From NCBI GenBank assembly GCA_964637115.1, contig CAZWVL010000003.1, forward strand, positions 77,758-141,757: 64,000 nt of DNA, written 5' to 3'. Shown in pieces: positions 6,463 through 59,911 of the stretch. Each line of letters opens with the position of its first letter. Position 1 is the stretch's first letter. The DNA comes from an uncultured Methanosarcinales archaeon. GTDB taxonomy: Archaea > Nanobdellota > Nanobdellia > Woesearchaeales > ARS49. The position numbers and the translations under genes were made by a program. The notes under the pieces are model-generated. The model was not told where the DNA came from. It ran no database searches and saw only the letters and a program-made list of their open reading frames with translations.

Positions 6463-9400
6463 GAACACGAAAGAAGAAAAGAGGAAAGTGAATTATTTGA
6501 CGCGCTCTTTGAGTGAATTTTTCTCCCCCACACTTTGTAAGGGGGAGAAAAATTCACCCCATCATAGAACTCTTGCGCGGCGGCAGCTTGGGTCAGTGGC
6601 ATTATTCATGGCATTCCTCATCATCATGCTTCCAATAGTTGATGCTCAAGCAATTGGCGACCAGCCAACAGCACAGGGAGAAGAAACAACAGTCAAACCA
6701 CTGTTTGTAAACGCAACCATTCCACGATATCCGCGCACAATGAAGATAGACATTGCAGGAATTACAAAACCAGGAGCAACTATTACGATCAATATCAACG
6801 GCGCTGATGTCAAAAAAGACATCATTGATGATGGAACATTTTTGTTCAAGCAAGTCCAACTGCAGGCAAGCAACGCAATAATCATTACAGCAGAACTCGG
6901 CGGCGAAACAGCAACACAAACATACCAAGCAGACGTTGACAATTCTCCGCCGCTCATCAATATCACGACAACACCCGTAGTAACGGCAGCAAGCTCAACA
7001 GTCAAGGTCAAGGTTTCAGAACCAGTCAATCTGACAGTGCAGGCAGGAAATCAAACAAATAAATCATACTCGCTCCAGGCAGGAAGCAACGACGTTAAAA
7101 TAGAACTGCAGCCAGGCGAAAACATGGTCGGCTTTACGGCAGTTGATAGAGCCGGATTTAAATCATTCATTGAAGAAAGAATCGTTTACGACACAGGACC
7201 GCCAAGATTTGAAAAAACAAACCTGAACCAATTGTCTCCGACATACAGGCAAGAAGTGGAAGTCAAGGGCAAACTATCAGAACCCGGCAGCGTAACAGCA
7301 TTTGTCAACGGCAAACCACAAAAAACAGAAGCAACAGCTTCGGATGGAAGTTTCTCGATAAAAGTAAAACTTGAAAGATCGCTTTCGGTAACTGCAGGCT
7401 CACAATCAGCTTCAGGAGTCACGGGAGGAGCAGTATCAATAGAACAAGGCATCCAATGGAAAAGCAAACTAAGGCTCGAGGCAATCGACGCAGCAGGACT
7501 AAAAGCAACAACGGAAGAAGTTGAGATAGCATATTCCATCTGCGGAAGCGGCACGTGGATAGACGTCCAATTAACAGACCCAATGCCGGACATACTCAAT
7601 CCAAGACTGATAATTGAAGGCATACAGCAAGTCGGCATAGGCTTCAACTACACATACAGAGGCGGCGCAAAAGCAGAAATCGATGCAAGAAGCATCAGAA
7701 TAAGAACATTAATGCTTTCTCCAGAAGTCAGGAAAGAATTTGACAACAATCTGGTGATGGTACGGGCTCCAAACGTAAGAGCTCAGCGCGCAACCAAGCC
7801 TAGCGGAGTAGGCTACATACAAGTAAACTTCAATCCTTTAGAAGACCCGTGGAGCCTGCCTGAAAAAGACGGTAAAAAAGAAGAAGCGCCTGCAAACGCA
7901 ACAATGTTCGATCGTGAACAAAGAATCTCCCAACACAGAGAAGGAGACTGCATCACGCCCGGCTTTGGCTGCATGAAACTATTCCTTGAACTTGAAATTC
8001 CATTCACAGAAACAACCAGGAAAATGGCCTACGACCCGATTGTGCGCGGCACACTTGAAAAAGATGTCGTGGAGCCATTAACACAAAGAACGTGCATAGA
8101 TGTCAACATTGCGATAGACAAAAGAGTTCCTCCGGATGTATTGCCATCAGGACTTTTGCGAGCATCCAGCGAATTCCTCGGGGCAGTCATACAAGGCATA
8201 GACAAAGTATTAATGCCAATCCAGACAATCGGAAAGTACTTGTTTTACACGTGTGTAGCTGGACAATTCCTGTCACTAGTTCCAATCGTTCTCGAAAAAT
8301 ACAACTGCGAGTTCAGAAAAGTAGCGGACGTTTTAGCAGGAGGAGAAGGCGCATTTGACCCCAATGTAGCAGCAATCAACGCCTGCGACGCAGAATATGG
8401 TGCAGGTTCAGACGCAGCAGACAACTGCAACACCTGCCATAAATGGAAAGACTACCGCAAAAAATTTGTCAGAACATACAGACAAATCTGCGACAGAGTA
8501 ATGTGCCCGGCAGCACCATCACTGCAGTATTATCTCAAAACCAGAGGCAGAGAATCACCAACAGAAGTCAAAGCAGAAAATGCAAAAGCTGATCCCGTGA
8601 TTGCCCAATACGCCCAAGGCGGCAAACTCTTTGCCGGCAGCGACTGCGCAGCATGGGTTGACGTGAACAAGCGCAAAGAAGAAAGAGGCACGAAGAAACC
8701 AGTACTTGCTCCACGATTATTCTTCACCACTGATGAAATTCAAAAAATCTATGATAACTGGCTCAAACATCAGTCAAACACTGCAGGAGAAACAGAAACA
8801 GGCGGCGTAAACTGCGCAGGACTGCACCCTGCAACACCAGAATGCTGCGGATATGAGTATATGCAGGAATGGAGTTCAGCGTGCGGAACAAGCGCACTCG
8901 GGCAAAGCCTGGATACTTTTGACGAAATAAAAGAAAGCACCTGCCTCGCAGCACAACGATCAGGCAAGAACGAAATAGGAGGATTAGAAGGAGAATCAAT
9001 ACAGTGCAACAAACTGTTGAATGCAGCCAGCGGATTCTGCGAGAAAAACGGAATGCCGCCTTTGACGCCAATTAGAGTAACGACAATTGATGCGAGAAAA
9101 GCAGAGTCATTAGAACTGCAAAAATACGCAGAAAGCAACGACCTCTACATCATCGTGCAGGATAAAGGCGCGGCGAGCTCCATTTTAGGCGTAGTACCAA
9201 CAGGCCAGTCACAAGGATACTCAATCAAGCTGGGCTTAATAATAAAAACATTGGAGTTCCAAAAAAGCGACAAGCCGGAAATAATTGCAACAAGCGAACG
9301 CTCCAAGCTCACAGAAAAACTTGACGTGATAGAATATCCGGAGTATACAGCATTCCAAACATCATTCTTCAGCCAGGAACAGATAGACGTTTACAGAGAA

Positions 9401-12400
9401 AAAGCAGCAATTCCACCAGATTTCAAAAAAACACTCTGTGATGCAGCAGGCAAAAAATTCGGTCAGTGCAACATTGATGAAAAGTACATTTACGCCCAAG
9501 TAATTCAGGCCATTGGAAGCCCAGACAAAGACTACATCATCAAGCCAAACGAAGGGCTGATAAACTCAGTCAGATGCCTTTGCATCCCAACAATTGTTGG
9601 ATACCTCAAATTATGGAGAGGAATAATGGGAGCAGTAAAAAGCTGCATTGACACCATACTCCTGACTGGCGACGGAGAGAATGGAATGTGCCAGGCACTC
9701 GTCAGCAGATACGTCTGCGATTTATTGTATGACGCGCTTGCCTGCTTCACGCAAAAATTCGGCACAGGACAAGGAAGAGTAGAAAAAGAAGGCGGCGGAG
9801 ACATAATGGGGGCGTTAGTTTCTGCAGGAAGCGAAATGCAAAGAGAAGTGCAAGGCAGATATGGAGAAACAGGGCTTTACAAAGCAGTATTTGTCGACAG
9901 AAAATTAGTACACTCAATCTGCATGTGGGCGTTCACAGGAACGTGGAACTTCGACTTGGGAGCAATATTTGACCAAGCAATAGACGAAATCCCGATCAGC
10001 AGCCAGGCATTGCTAACACCGTGCAACAGAAGATTCGTAAGCTTCAACCCAACAACAAGACCAGGAGGACTGGTAACGTGGGTGTATCACTTCGGGTCAT
10101 TCTTCGCAGCAGGAGCAGACGCAGAAATAGAATTGCACCTTGTCTGCAGCGATGATTTCACGTGCAAAGAATCAGACGGCTTTGAAAACGGCAAGTGCGA
10201 CTGCCAAGGCAAAGGAAAAAGAGATATTGTTATCAGGCCGGAAAACCTTCCAACAAGAGCAAAGAAAAACCAAATCCTGAGCGAAGAAATATTCTTCACG
10301 ATGCAAGCAGGCAGCGGAGAGAGCAATGTTCGATATGACAAAGCATACCTCCTCTACAGGTGGAAAGAAGCAAACAAACAGATGAAAGAAGACAAGACAG
10401 AACCCTGCTCAATTGGATTAACAGGCGGCGGTGGAAGCATGCCTGCATTCTGCAGATGGGATCCGTTCACAGTAAGCTTCAGGTGCCAGTTTGGCGAAGC
10501 GGCAGGAGGAATACGCTTCAAATCAGGAAAACCAGACTACAAACATCCGACAGTAAAAGGCGGAGTTTTCGCACTTGACGAAAGCGTTAGTGTAGAACTG
10601 CAGATGCAGCAAGACTATCCAGGCGGAGAAAAGTACAACAAATACTTGCAGTACACCATACTAGGCCCAGGCAACAAAGAACTTGCCACTAACAAAGACA
10701 GAGGACTAATATTATTACAGACAAATGGCGATTACAATAAGCGATTATCAGCAGACGGCACGCCACCAGTGCCAATAGAAATAAAACGAGAATGGTTCAC
10801 AACAGTAGAAGCAGGAAAAACCTTTTCGGCCAGACAATGGGCAAAATCACCACAAAATCCAACAGGCACAGCAGCAGACAACAAAGTAATTGAAGATGTG
10901 CAATTGGTAGGACTTGTAGGAGCAGTAGCAGCACAAAAGCAGTTCGTGCTTGAGCTAACAAGACAAGGCGACAAAATAAATTATGCAGTCTACACAGCTG
11001 GCACGAACGACAAGCCAGGAGTGGGGGAAAAGGGCGGATTCTACGTTGCAACACCAGCACTCTGCACAGGCACAATTTCTGGAACGAAAATTACGTGCAC
11101 ACCATCAATAGCTCCAAGACCAGGGCAACCACCACAGCCGCAAGACACTCTAACAATAACACTCAAAGCAGATCCTCTTTACCCAACAGTAGACGAACTA
11201 ATCCAGCTGCACATAAACATGAACATTCCAAGAACATTAGCAGCTGACCCGTGCAAAGGAGACGTAAACAACAGGTATCAACAATCATTCAAAATGATGC
11301 TGATGGCATACGATGCAGATAATTATGGATCACCATCAGAACAAGTAGCAGTAGACCCGTATACAGGAGCGGAAGCGGTGTTTGAAATTCCATTTTATGC
11401 CATGTGCGCAACGGCAGATGAATTAAAGCCGCTGGAAGGAATACTTGGGCCAGCAGAAATATTGGCAGGACTGAGCAAGGACATAAACGCGTGGTTAGCA
11501 CCAGAAAAAGATTACAAGACCAAACTCGAAGGATTTGTCTCGCAACCACTCAAGATAGAACAAACTACGAGTGTGCAAAATCAACTCGACCAGATAATCT
11601 TTGGCGAAACGGCAAATTCAGTTGTACTCGAGAAATACAAAACCAATCTGAAGAATATAACAGGAATGGATGCAGTAAAAGCAGCAGTTGAAGAATTATA
11701 CAATATTATCAGACCTCCATTCCACGCTGAACTCGATTTGCGCAATGTTGTCGGCTTGTCAATTGATGCCAAAAATGTTATCACAAACGAGCTTAAAGGC
11801 ACGCCAAACGTGACAAAAATACAGGATGCGCTCAGACCAATCATACCAGAACTTCAGAAAGCACTCGAAGCAAAACAGAAATTACTAACTTTGCTGCCAG
11901 CAGCTGCAGGCGAAAAAGGAGCCTGCCCAAGCGGAAAACAAGTTCCAGAAAAAACAGGAGAATATTATCTCTGTGCAACATCCTTGCCATCAGACAAATG
12001 GGTTGAAGTAACGGACAGGCAATGCTACGCAGTTGAAAAACAAACATGCTACAAATTGTCGGCTTCAAACCTCTGTTACGACAAAAACACGAATGGAGAC
12101 ACGTTCCACTGCGACACAGAATGCAAAGGAAACTCAGAAACATCAAGTGAGCAACGCATTTGTCCGAAGAAAGAAGAGCCAACGTGTTGTGTAGTCAAGT
12201 CAACAATTGCGCAAAAACTCCTGCAACTGAAAAACCAAATCGGCCAGCAGCAAGGCGATGATGAAAGCTTCAGGTCAAGCATTACCACAACAAGGACAAA
12301 TGAAGAATTAATTACATATCTGGTTGGAACAGGCGATATAAATGTCCCAACACTGATATCAGAGCTGAAAGCATATGCGTCTTTGAAAAATCTTGAAAGA

Positions 12401-52914: not shown

Positions 52915-53424
52915 TTAGCGTATTCCAAGTTTTTTCGCAAGTTGTTCTTGTCGTTTTTGAATTTTTGCGTATTCAGCGTTAGGGTCGTAAAACTGAGCTT
53001 TTTTCTTGATAGACTTTGCTTTCTTTTTAGCTCTCTTGACTTTTTTATAACCTTTTTTGTGCTTGATTGTTTTGTAACCTATTGTTTGTCCCATTAAACC
53101 TTTAATCTTCCTTTTGCCGATTTTAGTGTCTCGGCTGTGGCAGGTCGCGCAAACTAGATGACAGTTTTTCTGACTGTTATTTTCAGATTTGTTATCCCAG
53201 TGGTCAAATTGGTATCCGCCTTTCTTCCAGACGAATCTTGCTCCGCATTTAGAATAATGTCTGCATTTTGATGTTGTTTTGAAGTCATCATCAGCTCTGC
53301 CCGCAGCTTGATTCCATTCTATTTTCTGTGTTGAAAGTTTGAAGTTTTTTCTTTTAACAGTCTTCTTTATAATTCCAGTATTAAGGTTAAACTCATATTT
53401 TGGTTTTGGTAAGCCGAATCTCAT
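52915..53424 (-). CDS. HNH endonuclease-domain protein with Lys-rich tail
   Basis: CRHYSKC...FDHWDNKSENNSQKNCHLVCATCH (Cys pairs flanking DH...N...N...H). The C-terminal stretch is K-rich. Confidence 0.65.
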   Translation of the reverse strand: MRFGLPKPKYEFNLNTGIIKKTVKRKNFKLSTQKIEWNQAAGRADDDFKTTSKCRHYSKCGARFVWKKGGYQFDHWDNKSENNSQKNCHLVCATCHSRDTKIGKRKIKGLMGQTIGYKTIKHKKGYKKVKRAKKKAKSIKKKAQFYDPNAEYAKIQKRQEQLAKKLGIR

Positions 53425-54290: not shown

Positions 54291-54374
54291 TGGCGCCGGC
54301 AGGATTTGAACCTGCGAACCCACTAAGGGAGCGGATCTTAAGTCCGCCGCATTTGACCACTTTGCTACGGCGCC
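54291..54374 (-). tRNA. tRNA-Leu (anticodon UAA)
   Basis: The reverse complement folds as acceptor GGCGCCG/CGGCGCC, a D arm with GG, an anticodon arm GCGGA-CTTAAGA-TCCGC, a long variable arm, a T arm GCAGG-TTCAAAT-CCTGC and discriminator A. CCA is not encoded. A TATA-like TTTTATATA lies ~25-35 nt upstream on the minus strand (54399-54409). Confidence 0.9.
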
Positions 54375-54416: not shown

Positions 54417-54427
54417 AAATTTAAAAA
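54417..54427 (+). promoter_or_regulatory. TATA-like box for the + strand tRNA-like/tRNA-Thr unit
   Basis: AAATTTAAAAA is centred ~31 nt upstream of 54453. No comparable AT box lies in the 30 nt before the tRNA-Thr 5' end (54569). Confidence 0.5.
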
Positions 54428-54452
54428 CAAACACAGGCGCCGATGTTCTAAC

Positions 54453-54568
54453 GCTTCCGTAGCTTAAGTAGCTAACCTTTGCGAAAGGTTAGGATCCAAA
54501 GCATTCAAGTGCCATCTACGATGGCACGACATGCGGCAGATGCTTCGCATTTGTCGTTTCACATTCAC
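54453..54568 (+). other. tRNA-like 5' half (copy of tRNA-Thr acceptor + D arm) followed by three stem-loops: structured leader, pseudo-tRNA or alternative exon
   Basis: GCTTCCGTAGCTTAAGTAGCTA versus the tRNA-Thr GCCTCCGTAGCTT-AGTAGCTA. Hairpins lie at 54472-54492 (9 bp, GCG loop), 54509-54527 (8 bp, TAC loop) and 54526-54557 (ACGAC/GTCGT plus ATGCG/CGCAT). It reuses the CGACA...TGTCG anticodon-stem sequence. There is no T arm and no 3' acceptor strand of its own. Confidence 0.6.
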
Positions 54569-54653
54569 GCCTCCGTAGCTTAGTAGCTATAGCGCGACAT
54601 TGGTAACGATGCCAAAGATGTCGAGGTCGCGGGTGCAACTCCCGTCGGAGGCT
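54569..54653 (+). tRNA. tRNA-Thr (anticodon GGU) with a 12-nt intron at 37/38 and non-canonical D/T loops
   Basis: Acceptor GCCTCCG/CGGAGGC and anticodon stem CGACA/TGTCG with loop TTGGTA[ACGATGCCAAAG]A. Intron CCAA pairs with TTGG (32-35), leaving an AGA 3' bulge, which is a relaxed BHL motif. T arm GCGGG-TGCAACT-CCCGT, and D loop AGTAGCTA lacks GG. Confidence 0.75.
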
Positions 54654-54730
54654 TAAGCAATAGTATTGTGAGCCCTCGGTTTTGGGCCCGAACTGGGTCT
54701 AAATTTCTCCTATGCGTTTGTGAATTAAAA

Positions 54731-55696
54731 TTAATCAGGAATATATTTCAAAACGTGGATGGTGGTATATCCGAGCCATTCGGCATCGTTTACCACGTCC
54801 TTGAACTTCATCCTGATCTCGTCAATGACTTGAAGAAGATGTGGTAGGTCTTTCACGACAACTTCTATTTCAAAATCCGCCCCTCCGATGCTCTTATTCA
54901 TCTGATAAATATTCCGGTGCATGCTGCAGAATTCCAATAATTCCTTGTTGCGTCGGGTCGAAGTGAGCTGCAAGTCCACGCGATACCCTGCAAGGCCGAG
55001 CTTTTTGAGTTCGAAATCCACACGATAGCCGACAATCACCTTGTTCTGTTCGAGATTTTTAATGCGGGCGCGCACGAGTTCGGGGTTGATGCCCAATTTC
55101 CTTCCGATTTCTGACGCGCTCTGCCGCACATTTACGGCATAAGCTTCGATGATATTCTTATCCAGCTGGTCGATGGGTTCTGCAGTGCCAGCCCCATACA
55201 CGCGAATGATTCCCTGCTCAGTAGTCGGAAGGAGGAATTTTCTGTTGAAATTGAAGATGGGCGCGTATACAGCCACATTATAGCTCTTGATGCGCTGCTT
55301 GTACTGTGCCAACAGTCCGTCCCAAACCATGTGGAATTCGGTGATTGTTTTCACACCAATGAATAGAGCAATATCCCATTTTCCGTGCATCGAGACTACT
55401 GTCCATATTTGTTTGAAATGTTTTCTTGCGTATTCTGCAAGCGCATCTCGATCCTGGAGGGTCATTTGTTGGAGTTTGAGATACACACGGAAAGTGAAAA
55501 AGCCCAATTTCGACATGTCCACAATCGCGTAATACCCATTGATGATACCGGCTTGCTCGAGCTTCTCCATCCGATACGAGACGAACTGCTTGGAGCGCTT
55601 CAGCACGCGGCCGAGGTCCGCAAGCGACTGCGCCGCGTTCTTGTCGAGCTCGGACAGCAACTTTCGGTCATACAGATCTAGCTTGTAATCGTCCAT
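54731..55696 (-). CDS. Tandem-duplicated Lrp/AsnC-family transcriptional regulator
   Basis: Two HTH_AsnC-like units (LDLYDRKLLSELDKNAAQSLADLGRVLKRSKQFVSYRMEKLEQAGII and LDKNIIEAYAVNVRQSASEIGRKLGINPELVRARIKNLEQNKVI). Each is followed by a RAM-like domain. Confidence 0.75.
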   Translation of the reverse strand: MDDYKLDLYDRKLLSELDKNAAQSLADLGRVLKRSKQFVSYRMEKLEQAGIINGYYAIVDMSKLGFFTFRVYLKLQQMTLQDRDALAEYARKHFKQIWTVVSMHGKWDIALFIGVKTITEFHMVWDGLLAQYKQRIKSYNVAVYAPIFNFNRKFLLPTTEQGIIRVYGAGTAEPIDQLDKNIIEAYAVNVRQSASEIGRKLGINPELVRARIKNLEQNKVIVGYRVDFELKKLGLAGYRVDLQLTSTRRNKELLEFCSMHRNIYQMNKSIGGADFEIEVVVKDLPHLLQVIDEIRMKFKDVVNDAEWLGYTTIHVLKYIPD

Positions 55697-55808
55697 TTTA
55701 CTAACAAAACAGGTTTTAATATTTAAATATGCCTATTTTCGTCAAAAAATAAAGCAATAATATTTTATATATTAACTTCACATTTACCACCTATAAGTGA
55801 GAAATATA

Positions 55809-57227
55809 ATGAAAAAAGCACTGTTGATCCAACCAGCGTATCCCTACGGCAAGCCCCAGACCTGGCTGCCGACGAGTTTGCACAAGGTAGCCGCAGGCTT
55901 TGAGGCTGGAGGCACTCAAACCGATGTTGTTGATTTGAATCTTGAGCCATTCCCTTCGCTGCAGAATTACGACAATGTTGGAATCGGCGTTATCGGAATG
56001 CCCTACATCCCAGAAACCCGGCGCATTGCGAAAAGAGTATTTGAAGAAACCGGAAAGACGCCACTTATCGGGGGGCCGATTATAGAATTCTTCACGCCCG
56101 ATGAATTCCAGGAAATATACCCCAATTCCGCCCAGGTTCGGGGAGAGATCGTGCACAAAAATTCCAAGCTCGGTCGCACAATAAAAAAGACAGATCCGGT
56201 GCTGCAATTCAAGGGCATCGAGGCCGTTCCGGTGTATGAGGTAAGCATTGCGCAGCGCATAAAGCAGATGCCTGACGATTCGCTCAAGAAGTATCTGGAA
56301 AACGAGTTTGACTTTTTTGTTTCACAAGGCTGCAAATACGGTTGTCATTTCTGTGCCGCGGCGAAAAACCGCCGCGAAGAGTTTAGTGAACACCACGTTA
56401 TGCAAAGCGACCTGGAGGCAATCTGCGAGGCAGCCGGGCGCCTGCAGGTTCCCAAACTGAACATGTACCTCAGCTCGCTTGACCTTTTCCAGAATCCCGA
56501 ACAATTCAAAGAGGTCCTTGGACTCTTTGCCCATATGAGGAAGAAATACCGCCCAATCGACATTGAAGTACGCGGATTAAGCCGGTGCGATTCATTTCTC
56601 ACGGCCATTGAGCAGTTCTCTGAATTCTACACGCTCATTCCCGAATCAGGCTTGCGCACGATTGGTTTTGGCGTTGACGGCGTCGAACAAGCGACTTGGA
56701 ACGAACAAAATAAGCGGAACAAGAGCCTTTCTGATTTTGAGAGAACGTTTACGATTTGCAGAGAACTTGGCGTTACGCCGGAATCGCTGATGGTGACTGG
56801 ATTCCATAATCCGCATACGTATGAGGGCAGCCTTATAGAATTGAAAAGGACTGTGGAGTATGCCATCAAATGGGCGGATAAGTACGGAGCAGTTTGCCGT
56901 CCGCATGTTGCGAAAGACTTTTCTCCTGGAAATACAGGCTGGGAAAACCCAAAATGGGCAGAACAACGCGCACGCCTGGTCAGGAACCCTGACCGGTTCA
57001 TGTGCCTGGATTACCTCATGCCCGCAACAGAATTAAGCCACCCTGATCCTGGATTCCGCGGTCATGTTAACGATGCGTTTTGGAAAATAATTAATGAACT
57101 GACTCCGCGCGGCTTGTGCGCAACTGTCCCGCTGCTGCCGTGTCATGCCGAAGGTGCATATGCGGCTGAACTGATTGCCGCTGCTCTTGCGTATCACCTG
57201 TCACCGAGAATACGTGGGGACAGGTGA
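55809..57227 (+). CDS. Radical SAM protein with N-terminal B12-binding-like domain
   Basis: Cx3Cx2C motif in VSQGCKYGCHFCAA. The N-terminal ~140 aa has a Rossmann-like layout (ALLIQPAYP...VGIGVIGM). The ATG at 55809 is preferred over the GTG at 55797. Confidence 0.7.
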   Translation: MKKALLIQPAYPYGKPQTWLPTSLHKVAAGFEAGGTQTDVVDLNLEPFPSLQNYDNVGIGVIGMPYIPETRRIAKRVFEETGKTPLIGGPIIEFFTPDEFQEIYPNSAQVRGEIVHKNSKLGRTIKKTDPVLQFKGIEAVPVYEVSIAQRIKQMPDDSLKKYLENEFDFFVSQGCKYGCHFCAAAKNRREEFSEHHVMQSDLEAICEAAGRLQVPKLNMYLSSLDLFQNPEQFKEVLGLFAHMRKKYRPIDIEVRGLSRCDSFLTAIEQFSEFYTLIPESGLRTIGFGVDGVEQATWNEQNKRNKSLSDFERTFTICRELGVTPESLMVTGFHNPHTYEGSLIELKRTVEYAIKWADKYGAVCRPHVAKDFSPGNTGWENPKWAEQRARLVRNPDRFMCLDYLMPATELSHPDPGFRGHVNDAFWKIINELTPRGLCATVPLLPCHAEGAYAAELIAAALAYHLSPRIRGDR

Positions 57228-57232
57228 TAAAA

Positions 57233-57724
57233 ATGCCCGAACTCAGTCCAAACGCGCAAAAGGTCCAAGAATTCCTGGACAAGCAAGGATTCTCGTATCA
57301 GGTTGTGGAATTTCAACAGAAGACGCGCAGTGCTGCAGAAGCAGCACAAGCCATCGGATGCACACTGGAACAAATCGCCAAATCAATCGTCTTTCAAGGA
57401 AGCTACACGCAGAAGCCAATTCTCGTGATTGCGAGTGGCGTGAACAGGGTTGACGAAAGCAAGTTGATTTCGCTTGTCTCTGAGCCTGTTCAAAAAGCAA
57501 ATCCGGAATTCGTGCGGCAACACACGGGCTTTTCTATCGGCGGTGTTCCGCCTATTCATTATATCAATAAAATCGAAACGTTTATTGATGAGGATTTGTT
57601 GCGCTATGCCGAGATTTGGGCAGCTGCAGGCACGCCTTATGCGGTTTTTAAGTTGGCGCCAGGTGATCTATTACAAATGACTTACGGAAGAGTCGTTTCG
57701 ATTAAATCAATATCAAAACAATAA
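57233..57724 (+). CDS. ybaK: YbaK/EbsC-type aminoacyl-tRNA deacylase domain protein
   Basis: QKVQEFLDKQGFSYQVVEF...TRSAAEAAQAIGCTLEQIAKSIVF...GGVPP is typical of the YbaK/ProX family. It starts 6 nt after the radical SAM stop. Confidence 0.75.
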   Translation: MPELSPNAQKVQEFLDKQGFSYQVVEFQQKTRSAAEAAQAIGCTLEQIAKSIVFQGSYTQKPILVIASGVNRVDESKLISLVSEPVQKANPEFVRQHTGFSIGGVPPIHYINKIETFIDEDLLRYAEIWAAAGTPYAVFKLAPGDLLQMTYGRVVSIKSISKQ

Positions 57725-57841
57725 TAACTTCGTTAATTTCTCAATTAATAAGATTCGGGAATCGCAGAGGGATCCCACTTTTGCTTCTGTAGCCCATTGT
57801 AGGCTTTCGCCCCCGTTCGTAAGCCCACACTTGAGAAAAGC

Positions 57842-59760: not shown

Positions 59761-59833
59761 GAGCCCGTGGTCTAGCGGTTATGACGGCTCGTTGACGTCG
59801 AGCAAGTCCCCAGTTCGAACCTGGGCGGGCTCA
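59761..59833 (+). tRNA. tRNA-Val (anticodon GAC)
   Basis: Acceptor GAGCCCG/CGGGCTC, D loop with GG, anticodon arm GCTCG-TTGACGT-CGAGC, T arm CCCAG-TTCGAAC-CTGGG and discriminator A. Confidence 0.9.
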
Positions 59834-59895
59834 TACTTAATGTCTACAAGACGCGTCGCTTCCCGCACAGATCAGCCAAACCGCAGTTTGGGTCT

Positions 59896-59911
59896 ACCTG
59901 GGCGGGCTCAT
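59896..59911 (+). repeat. Direct repeat of the tRNA-Val 3' end (att-like scar)
   Basis: ACCTGGGCGGGCTCAT at 59896-59911 is identical to 59819-59834. The upstream flank CAGTTTGGGTCT is a degenerate copy of the T arm. Confidence 0.85.

Follow-up and report, generated by a model that had tools for sequence, protein, structure and literature searches.

In a 64,000-nucleotide stretch of DNA from an uncultured archaeon (hereafter the window), a tRNA-Thr(GGU) gene is directly preceded by 116 nucleotides (nt; 54453-54568) that open with a copy of the gene's own first bases and continue as a series of hairpins, for which an earlier note had offered three explanations: a decayed partial duplication of the gene, a structured leader that modulates tRNA maturation, or an alternative 5′ exon of a split-type tRNA. 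Our analysis indicates that this upstream unit does not serve as a second exon of a tRNA but is, most likely, a long leader that can be removed. As to its origin, the evidence tips, in our judgement, somewhat towards the insertion of an undescribed hairpin-mosaic element, mobile or repetitive, at the 5′ end of tRNA-Thr(GGU), where it would now be transcribed as a passenger leader. One part of the proposed duplication stands, since the 22-nt copy of the gene's 5′ end is a real direct repeat; the other part does not, as the hairpins are not decayed tRNA but a separate, conserved and covarying element that is also found away from tRNA genes.

That the window holds an insertion follows from comparison with related loci and contigs (given here as L numbers, with the suffixes a and b for separate element copies within one contig). 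Five of these (L008, L031, L022, L017 and L025) have the window's divergent tRNA-Leu and its upstream genes, a copper ATPase and a Na/Ca exchanger, at about 75-85% protein identity, and in all five a tRNA-Thr(GGU) gene that lacks an intron and has the same exons as the window gene lies exactly at the position of the upstream copy. Compared with these syntenic relatives, the additions in the window amount to about 116 nt and a 12-nt intron. The distance from tRNA-Leu is 78 nt for the upstream copy in the window and 81 nt for tRNA-Thr in the relatives, and the +1 position of the relatives' gene is preceded by the same TATA-like box, TTTAAAAA, at -33 to -26, as is the upstream copy; by these spacings, the upstream copy occupies the ancestral +1. 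A similar picture emerges at the other two tRNA-Thr loci. The CGU locus, which lies behind a 52-residue zinc-ribbon gene, is filled in L019, L020, L028, L034 and L051a and empty in L007, L011-13, L026, L032, L049 and L052, and the UGU locus is filled in L006, L009, L033 and L039a and empty in L016 and L027. For presence and absence at the population level, every contig with the neighbouring genes ends at the tRNA repeats. As the exons equal those of the relatives, a single event, in which an island with leader, intron-containing tRNA and cargo took the place of the host gene, is inseparable from two independent events.

The gene itself is called by Rfam (RF00005, 51.4 bits) at 54569-54653 on the forward strand and folds as an ordinary cloverleaf, its exons being those of the intronless L031 and L022 genes. 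The anticodon GGT occupies 54602-54604 and the 12-nt intron 54606-54617, at the canonical 37/38 position, where, as read from the sequence, CCAA pairs with UUGG to form a standard bulge-helix-bulge (BHB) motif. ARAGORN misses the gene because of this intron and also reports no match in the upstream unit. The divergent tRNA-Leu(UAA) lies at 54291-54374, and between the two, on the forward strand, the TATA-like box can be read directly at 54420-54427, that is, -33 to -26 from 54453. The same box at the same spacing precedes the tRNA-Thr +1 in the element-free syntenic loci L008 and L031, the alignment of L022 places it likewise, and no comparable box stands directly before 54569, which agrees with what the earlier note had seen. 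The box is thus probably the inherited tRNA-Thr promoter, from which the upstream unit and tRNA-Thr would be co-transcribed; the single transcript that the note had proposed is consistent with the anatomy and is strengthened by a promoter spacing inherited from the ancestral gene, an argument from arrangement rather than from expression.

The upstream unit, all of it described on the forward strand, begins with the copy. Positions 54453-54474 (GCTTCCGTAGCTTAAGTAGCTA) differ from tRNA positions 1-21 (GCCTCCGTAGCTTAGTAGCTA) by a C3>T substitution and an additional A, and the claim that they copy the acceptor 5′ strand and D arm of tRNA-Thr was borne out by direct comparison and by a repeat search. 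The latter extends the copy to 54451 (ACGC...), so that 54451-54474 repeats the tRNA's first 22 nt together with the two bases before them (-2 to 22); the direct repeat of 54451-54466 and 54567-54582 is 94% identical and goes on, after a 1-nt indel, as GTAGCTA. The first module of the element is hairpin 1 (54472-54492), with nine perfect base pairs (bp) and the loop GCG, found by folding and kept in 13 aligned copies. It is followed by an unpaired linker, GGATCCAAAGCATTCA (54493-54508), whose core GA.C.AAA is invariant or nearly so across copies, and by hairpin 2 (54509-54527), with eight perfect bp of the form GTGC...GCAC, also found by folding and near-identical to hairpin 2 of a copy that is not linked to a tRNA, L051b. 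The hairpin 3 region (54528-54557) is variable; in the window its stem, at 54533-54557, has 11 bp including three G-U pairs, and the three stem-loops described earlier are thereby upheld. Across subtypes this region has in common only a RUGC-loop-GCAY core and the motif YCGCA, and in L020 it is largely deleted. The tail, TTCACATTCAC (54558-54568), is common to L020, L028 and L051a and abuts the tRNA +1.

The fold of the 116-nt unit has a predicted energy of -40.3 kcal/mol (z = -4.98 against dinucleotide shuffles), and two of the three distinct perfect hairpins in the whole 64 kb (stem of at least 8 bp, loop of 3-8 nt) lie within it. No open reading frame (ORF) of at least 60 amino acids overlaps the unit, and no family in Rfam 15 matches it at E<=10, the only matches being tRNA at 54569-54653 and 54291-54374. 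Two resemblances to the tRNA that the earlier note had drawn do not survive. The sequence CGACA...TGTCG in hairpin 3, thought to be built on the tRNA-Thr anticodon stem, is probably a coincidence, since CGACAT belongs to the element subtype independently of the local tRNA, being present in L019, L028, L034 and L051b though the anticodon stem of the adjacent tRNA differs. Similarly, the block GATCCAAAG, taken as an echo of the intron 3′ end, reflects the conserved linker G(A/G)AYC(C)AAA found in every family copy. We also considered and set aside hairpin 1 as an anticodon arm (its UUGCGAA resembles an Arg loop), as both loop length (3-9 nt) and loop sequence vary between copies, and C/D-box, H/ACA, K-turn and ribozyme identities, for which box motifs are not visible, the distance from ACA to the 3′ end is inconstant and Rfam gives no match. 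A check on the strand of function counted about three G-U against two A-C mismatches.

We scanned one genome per species with the unusual D-arm of the window tRNA-Thr, which gave 30 loci, all of them tRNA-Thr with anticodon GGT, CGT or TGT and nearly all in metagenome-assembled genomes labelled Woesearchaeota, Nanoarchaeia or uncultured archaeon. A homologous unit lies directly upstream of the tRNA in seven of these 30; a metagenome scan with the junction between 5′ copy and hairpin 1 gave five more true loci, and L051a was added through contigs retrieved by a conserved neighbouring gene. The tRNA-linked copies number 14 (window, L006, L009, L015, L018, L019, L020, L028, L033, L034, L035, L039a, L044 and L051a), and the unit thus precedes tRNA-Thr genes of all three anticodons across 13 other Woesearchaeota and Nanoarchaeia contigs. 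Their common layout consists of the 5′ copy, hairpin 1 (..CCTTT-loop-AAAGG..), the linker G(A/G)AYC(C)AAA, hairpin 2 (GTGC...GCAC), a variable third hairpin with YCGCA and an A/T-rich tail, with two extra hairpin modules in L009, L018b and L051a/b.

When hairpins 1 and 2 are aligned over 13 sequences, 94.2% of the cells are paired, and ten of the 16 pairs are changed on both sides (four of nine in hairpin 1 and six of the seven aligned pairs in hairpin 2). None of 500 shuffles scored as high, and slid controls pair at 34-48%, which argues that the hairpins are conserved structure and not chance palindromes. Compensatory changes in orthologous loci, which the earlier note had named as a check, are thus present, and hairpins 1 and 2 covary strongly in relatives. 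With a covariance model that joins hairpins 1 and 2 and the linker, every copy is recovered, at scores of 36-78 bits, and the window copy is the only one in its 64 kb. Taken together, the copies define what is apparently an undescribed family of hairpin-mosaic repeats, present in a few diverged copies per genome in Woesearchaeota and Nanoarchaeia.

Some copies lie away from tRNA genes. For instance, L039b (9028-9115) is found between two copies, 95% identical, of a 40-nt sequence from the 3′ end of a gene for a 127-residue protein on the other strand (its last 11 codons with the stop, and 3 nt), and an exact 25-nt repeat of unrelated sequence stands on either side of L051b. A third, L018b, comes after a stop codon, where a flanking repeat is not evident. 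Since these non-tRNA copies are flanked by unrelated direct repeats, the tRNA “5′ half” can be understood as the flanking repeat of an insertion site, and the simplest account of the sequences would be that copies sit between direct repeats (17 to 40 nt) of whatever they interrupted, which at tRNA-Thr is the 5′ end of the gene. The repeat extends suggestively 2-3 nt upstream of +1 in five of 13 loci, an extension that would favour a true target duplication, with the window confounded by the element's own ...TCAC tail. The tRNA-linked L051a and L051b, which occur on one contig, have about 95% identity across 85 nt, although the whole of hairpin 2 has been swapped for another.

Small non-autonomous elements with which the family may be compared include miniature inverted-repeat transposable elements (MITEs; Sulfolobus SM1-4), the Correia elements of Neisseria and the mosaics of repetitive extragenic palindromes (REP/BIME). 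Like the element described here, these are non-coding, about 100-170 nt long, made up of hairpins that may be gained or exchanged as modules, present in a few to many copies per genome, placed at gene ends and co-transcribed with their neighbours. Several related copies in one genome, as expected of a MITE, are found in L051a/b, L039a/b and L018a/b, and target-site duplications of 17-40 nt at tRNA-Thr, L039b and L051b, with none evident at L018b. Unlike MITE-type elements, the family has low copy number and high divergence, its flanking repeats of 17-40 nt compare with 2-10 nt, terminal inverted repeats are lacking and a cognate transposase is not known.

As to how the locus came about, we infer the processing site and the mechanisms of insertion and recombination as follows. 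The 116 nt include a copy, about 94 nt long, of the non-coding repeat element, which would have entered at the 5′ end of the gene so that the first bases of the gene ended up repeated on its far side. The favoured first step is a transposition-like insertion that gives long and variable flanking repeats, and the second would be spread among the three tRNA-Thr paralogues by recombination through their common 5′ segment, the same recombination also homogenising the upstream copy. Transcription would then start from the old start site, now the upstream copy, and run through the hairpins to give a 116-nt leader; the mature tRNA would be freed by 5′ processing at 54568/54569 (RNase P or an equivalent), and the splicing endonuclease would take out the 12-nt intron. 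Long and variable direct repeats have a precedent in IS1634 and IS1549, which generate repeats of 8-514 bp on insertion (PMC2266710) and belong to a family common in Euryarchaeota. These are precedent only, being unlike the element here in their length of 1.5-2 kb, their DDE transposase and their terminal repeats.

Several observations weigh against the favoured insertion. The ends of the element have no common inverted repeat, and neither a transposase nor an integrase partner for it was found in the contigs searched. The copies are 44-87% identical, so that no recent burst is implied, and upkeep of the hairpins by compensatory change over such divergence suggests a constraint that simple selfish spread would not impose. 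The 14 copies linked to a tRNA all point the same way, and their left boundary is always at about +1. Most upstream copies have an extra nucleotide at position 15/16 that is absent from the real gene and that fresh target duplications would not give. In two lineages the acceptor variants of the real 5′ strand are also found in the upstream copy, and the 3′ strand matches them (GCCTCTG/CAGAGGC in L035 and GCCCTTG/CAGGGGC in L051a); such concerted change needs gene conversion, re-insertion or selection, and the extra nucleotide at 15/16 means that re-copying of the whole repeat is not the sole process. The upstream copy is conserved better than would be expected of a neutral relic, and, were the unit no more than a passenger, the pairing predicted below between copy and 3′ acceptor strand would come at a cost. 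Finally, 13 of the 14 tRNA-linked copies precede intron-containing genes, an association that the insertion model leaves unexplained; introns are absent from the empty GGU loci of the syntenic relatives and from most of the CGU loci that are empty. Candidate causes that fit the state of the upstream copy, its predicted pairing and the link with introns are recombination, both between the repeats and across three paralogues alike in their first 26 nt, an attachment-site crossover to the left of position 15, and selection for a decoy.

The last of these is the basis of the alternative that survives best, which we nevertheless regard as unlikely. It holds that the upstream copy is kept for pairing with the 3′ acceptor strand and that the hairpins are the scaffold of an alternative closed fold, which may delay or gate the 5′ processing, splicing or 3′ maturation of tRNA-Thr. 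The pairing of GCUUCCG with CGGAGGC through a single U-G pair, as the earlier note had supposed, was confirmed, and in folding predictions the copy is favoured as partner of the 3′ strand in all 12 loci with a recognisable upstream acceptor copy (P 0.84-0.99), 2-8 kcal/mol better than when the inner pairing is forced; the copy takes the 3′ strand in these predictions because the real 5′ part, once displaced, folds on a palindrome of its own. Nearest-neighbour folding, however, takes account neither of tertiary structure in the tRNA nor of the order of folding during transcription. The copy's positions 1-6 are complementary to the 3′ strand wherever a recognisable copy remains, and C3>U in the window preserves a wobble pair, but position 7 is a mismatch in L009, L028 and L033. 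Changes matched on all three strands occur in two lineages, at one position in L035 and three in L051a, though gene conversion between the repeats could also yield them. The hairpins are upheld by compensatory change, but they persist and still covary where the copy is almost wholly deleted (L006) or truncated (L028), the same element is present at non-tRNA sites in other contexts, and in many relatives the tRNA is matured although it has no leader.

Ranking after it, and doubtful, is the footprint of site-specific integration: an element with a tyrosine integrase, having its attachment core in the first 14 or so nt of tRNA-Thr, would have left a miniature, integrase-less remnant (attL, about 94 nt of arm sequence, attR) that may be mobilisable in trans and may have arrived with the intron. 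Such a core would account for the constant +1 boundary, and also for an extra nucleotide common to copies right of the crossover point while positions 1-14 match the host gene. Integrating elements are known to generate tRNA fragments in archaea (PMC3293823; Thermococcaceae, PMC9897764), and the link with introns agrees with the tie between integration and intron gain proposed for tRNA-Thr(GGU) of Caldiarchaeum (PMC3293823). In this clade, too, tRNA-Thr is an integration hot spot. In L052 an integrase island (PF00589) follows tRNA-Thr(CGU), in the window and L044 the gene's 3′ end bears insertions of 2-3 kb that are recognised by a displaced tRNA 3′ fragment with native flank, and the window's tRNA-Val carries a 16-nt 3′ repeat. 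By comparison of flanks, the displaced, degenerate tRNA-Thr 3′ end (CCCATTGTAGGCTT, last 14 nt) and the native 3′ flank TCGCCCCCGTTCGTAAGCCCACAC were located at 57793-57840 on the forward strand; this flank motif comes directly after tRNA-Thr in L031, L052 and L058 and 3.1 kb away in the window, which points to a separate insertion of about 3.1 kb (54654-57792) on the 3′ side of the gene. Its cargo includes an Lrp-like regulator, a radical-SAM protein and a YbaK-like protein, and in L044 the same end blocks surround different cargo.

The upstream unit resembles archaeal attachment-type tRNA repeats (of the SSV1 and pNOB8 types and of Caldiarchaeum) in that a direct repeat of one gene end flanks foreign DNA, an intact gene is kept at one border, close genomes differ by presence and absence, and intron gain is associated, in Caldiarchaeum at the same isoacceptor. 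Unlike those systems, the element is only about 94 nt long, non-coding and without a recombinase, fragment and gene would share one transcription unit, and the family has unrelated flanking repeats elsewhere. Every locus has only about 94 nt between its repeats, a full-length parent with the hairpins beside an integrase was not found, and the L052 integrase lies on the 3′ side, away from hairpins. Nor is there one core at all sites: the flanking repeats of closely related copies within a genome are unlike one another (L051a against L051b, L039a against L039b, with 40 nt at L039b and 25 nt at L051b), which would not be expected of a site-specific core. BLAST against phages and plasmids gave no match, and scans of viral contigs for the tRNA D-arm, T-arm and element were empty.

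More doubtful than either is a stronger claim, that the family is a new archaeal mobile RNA/DNA module which settles in the discarded parts of tRNA-Thr precursors (the 5′ leader and possibly the intron) and whose acceptor copy acts as an in-cis decoy controlling maturation.

The reading of the unit as a split tRNA or alternative exon, in which a splicing endonuclease would join the upstream 5′ half to the common 3′ half to give a second product, is very improbable, and short of RNA evidence we reject it: the upstream copy is predicted to be able to close an acceptor stem, and in the window GCUU/AAGC could form a D-stem around hairpin 1, but that D-stem is absent from other subtypes, the unit gives no match to a covariance model of tRNA at E<=10, the upstream copy is lost in L006, and the five syntenic relatives have a continuous, intronless gene. 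A strict scan for helix-bulge-helix-bulge-helix motifs (hBHBh′) on 13 precursors recovered the canonical anticodon-loop intron in three (L028, L033 and L044), and at the duplication it returned only AGCU/AGCU palindrome artefacts of the odd D-arm, whose products have no D-loop or an oversized one. DPANN archaea may carry splicing endonucleases of broad specificity (PMC3239211, PMC5829648), but the product would have the normal tRNA's anticodon arm, and with the same anticodon a second product is unneeded. The split and tri-split tRNAs of Nanoarchaeum equitans and Caldivirga maquilingensis and multi-intron tRNAs likewise show a tRNA 5′ portion followed by structured non-tRNA sequence. Unlike them, the window unit has neither a usable BHB at each boundary nor a complementary leader and trailer, its supposed exon is not recognisable by covariance, the 3′ half has a complete 5′ half of its own, and the arrangement is not conserved in the lineage but arose by insertion into a once-continuous gene.

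Some further features of these loci were observed. In the window gene and in all tRNA-Thr genes of L003-L035, L049-L054 and L057, the D-loop is AGUAGCUA, without the usual GG, and the T-loop is UGCAACU instead of UUCRAAU in all three isoacceptors; at the same locus in L058, another Woesearchaeota contig, the canonical AGCGGCAGA and UUCAAAU are found, and D-loop and T-loop appear to have changed together. A hairpin near-identical to hairpin 1 of some copies (CAAACTTTTGTAAAAAAGTTTG) is present inside the tRNA-Thr(CGU) intron of L049 (10198-10227) and L050 (6400-6429) and in the tRNA intron of L020, which suggests tRNA introns as a further place for hairpin modules to settle. L019 (3537-3600) and L020 (2291-2355, minus strand) have a common GC-rich structured segment of about 60 nt (CGCGGATTCATATCGAAGGGGCCTTAACGCCCGGCCCCTTCTGGAACCCCGACGCACAAT) just before the 5′ copy, and before this segment TTTAGGCTT resembles the tRNA-Thr 3′ end; in L014, L015 and L018, too, TTAGGCTTA is found in front of the tRNA or of the 5′ copy.

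The tyrosine integrase (10619-11896) of L052, a related metagenome-assembled genome of Woesearchaeota, lies just downstream of tRNA-Thr(CGU) and is accompanied by about 6 kb of cargo that includes an N6/N4 DNA methylase, and a tRNA fragment was not found at the far end of the island. The window's tRNA-Val(GAC) (59761-59833), reported by ARAGORN and not at the Rfam gathering threshold, has an exact 16-nt direct repeat of its 3′ end (59819-59834 and 59896-59911) with a 61-nt insert between that is lacking in L008 and L010. Downstream of tRNA-Val in L008 (about 7755-7900) there are four to five tandem repeats of about 36 nt, each of which holds CTCCG...CGGAGGCT, a mini-helix similar to the acceptor stem of tRNA-Thr. 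A lysine-rich ORF of 169 residues with an HNH-like motif (DHWDNKSENNSQKNCHLVCATCH) lies on the minus strand at 52915-53424, about 0.9 kb from tRNA-Leu.

In annotation, it would be a mistake to count the seeming half tRNA among split or multi-exon tRNAs, and units of this kind could mislead tRNA censuses of DPANN archaea. The covarying hairpins and unusually long, variable flanking repeats (17-40 nt) mark a possible new family of structured repeats, and the locus points to elements that tolerate or exploit the removable parts of a tRNA precursor. The concerted change of a decoy 5′ strand with the acceptor stem would be of interest if it reflects selection rather than gene conversion. Together with their 3′ insertions and integrase island, the tRNA-Thr genes of this clade form a natural series for the gain of leaders, fragments and introns.

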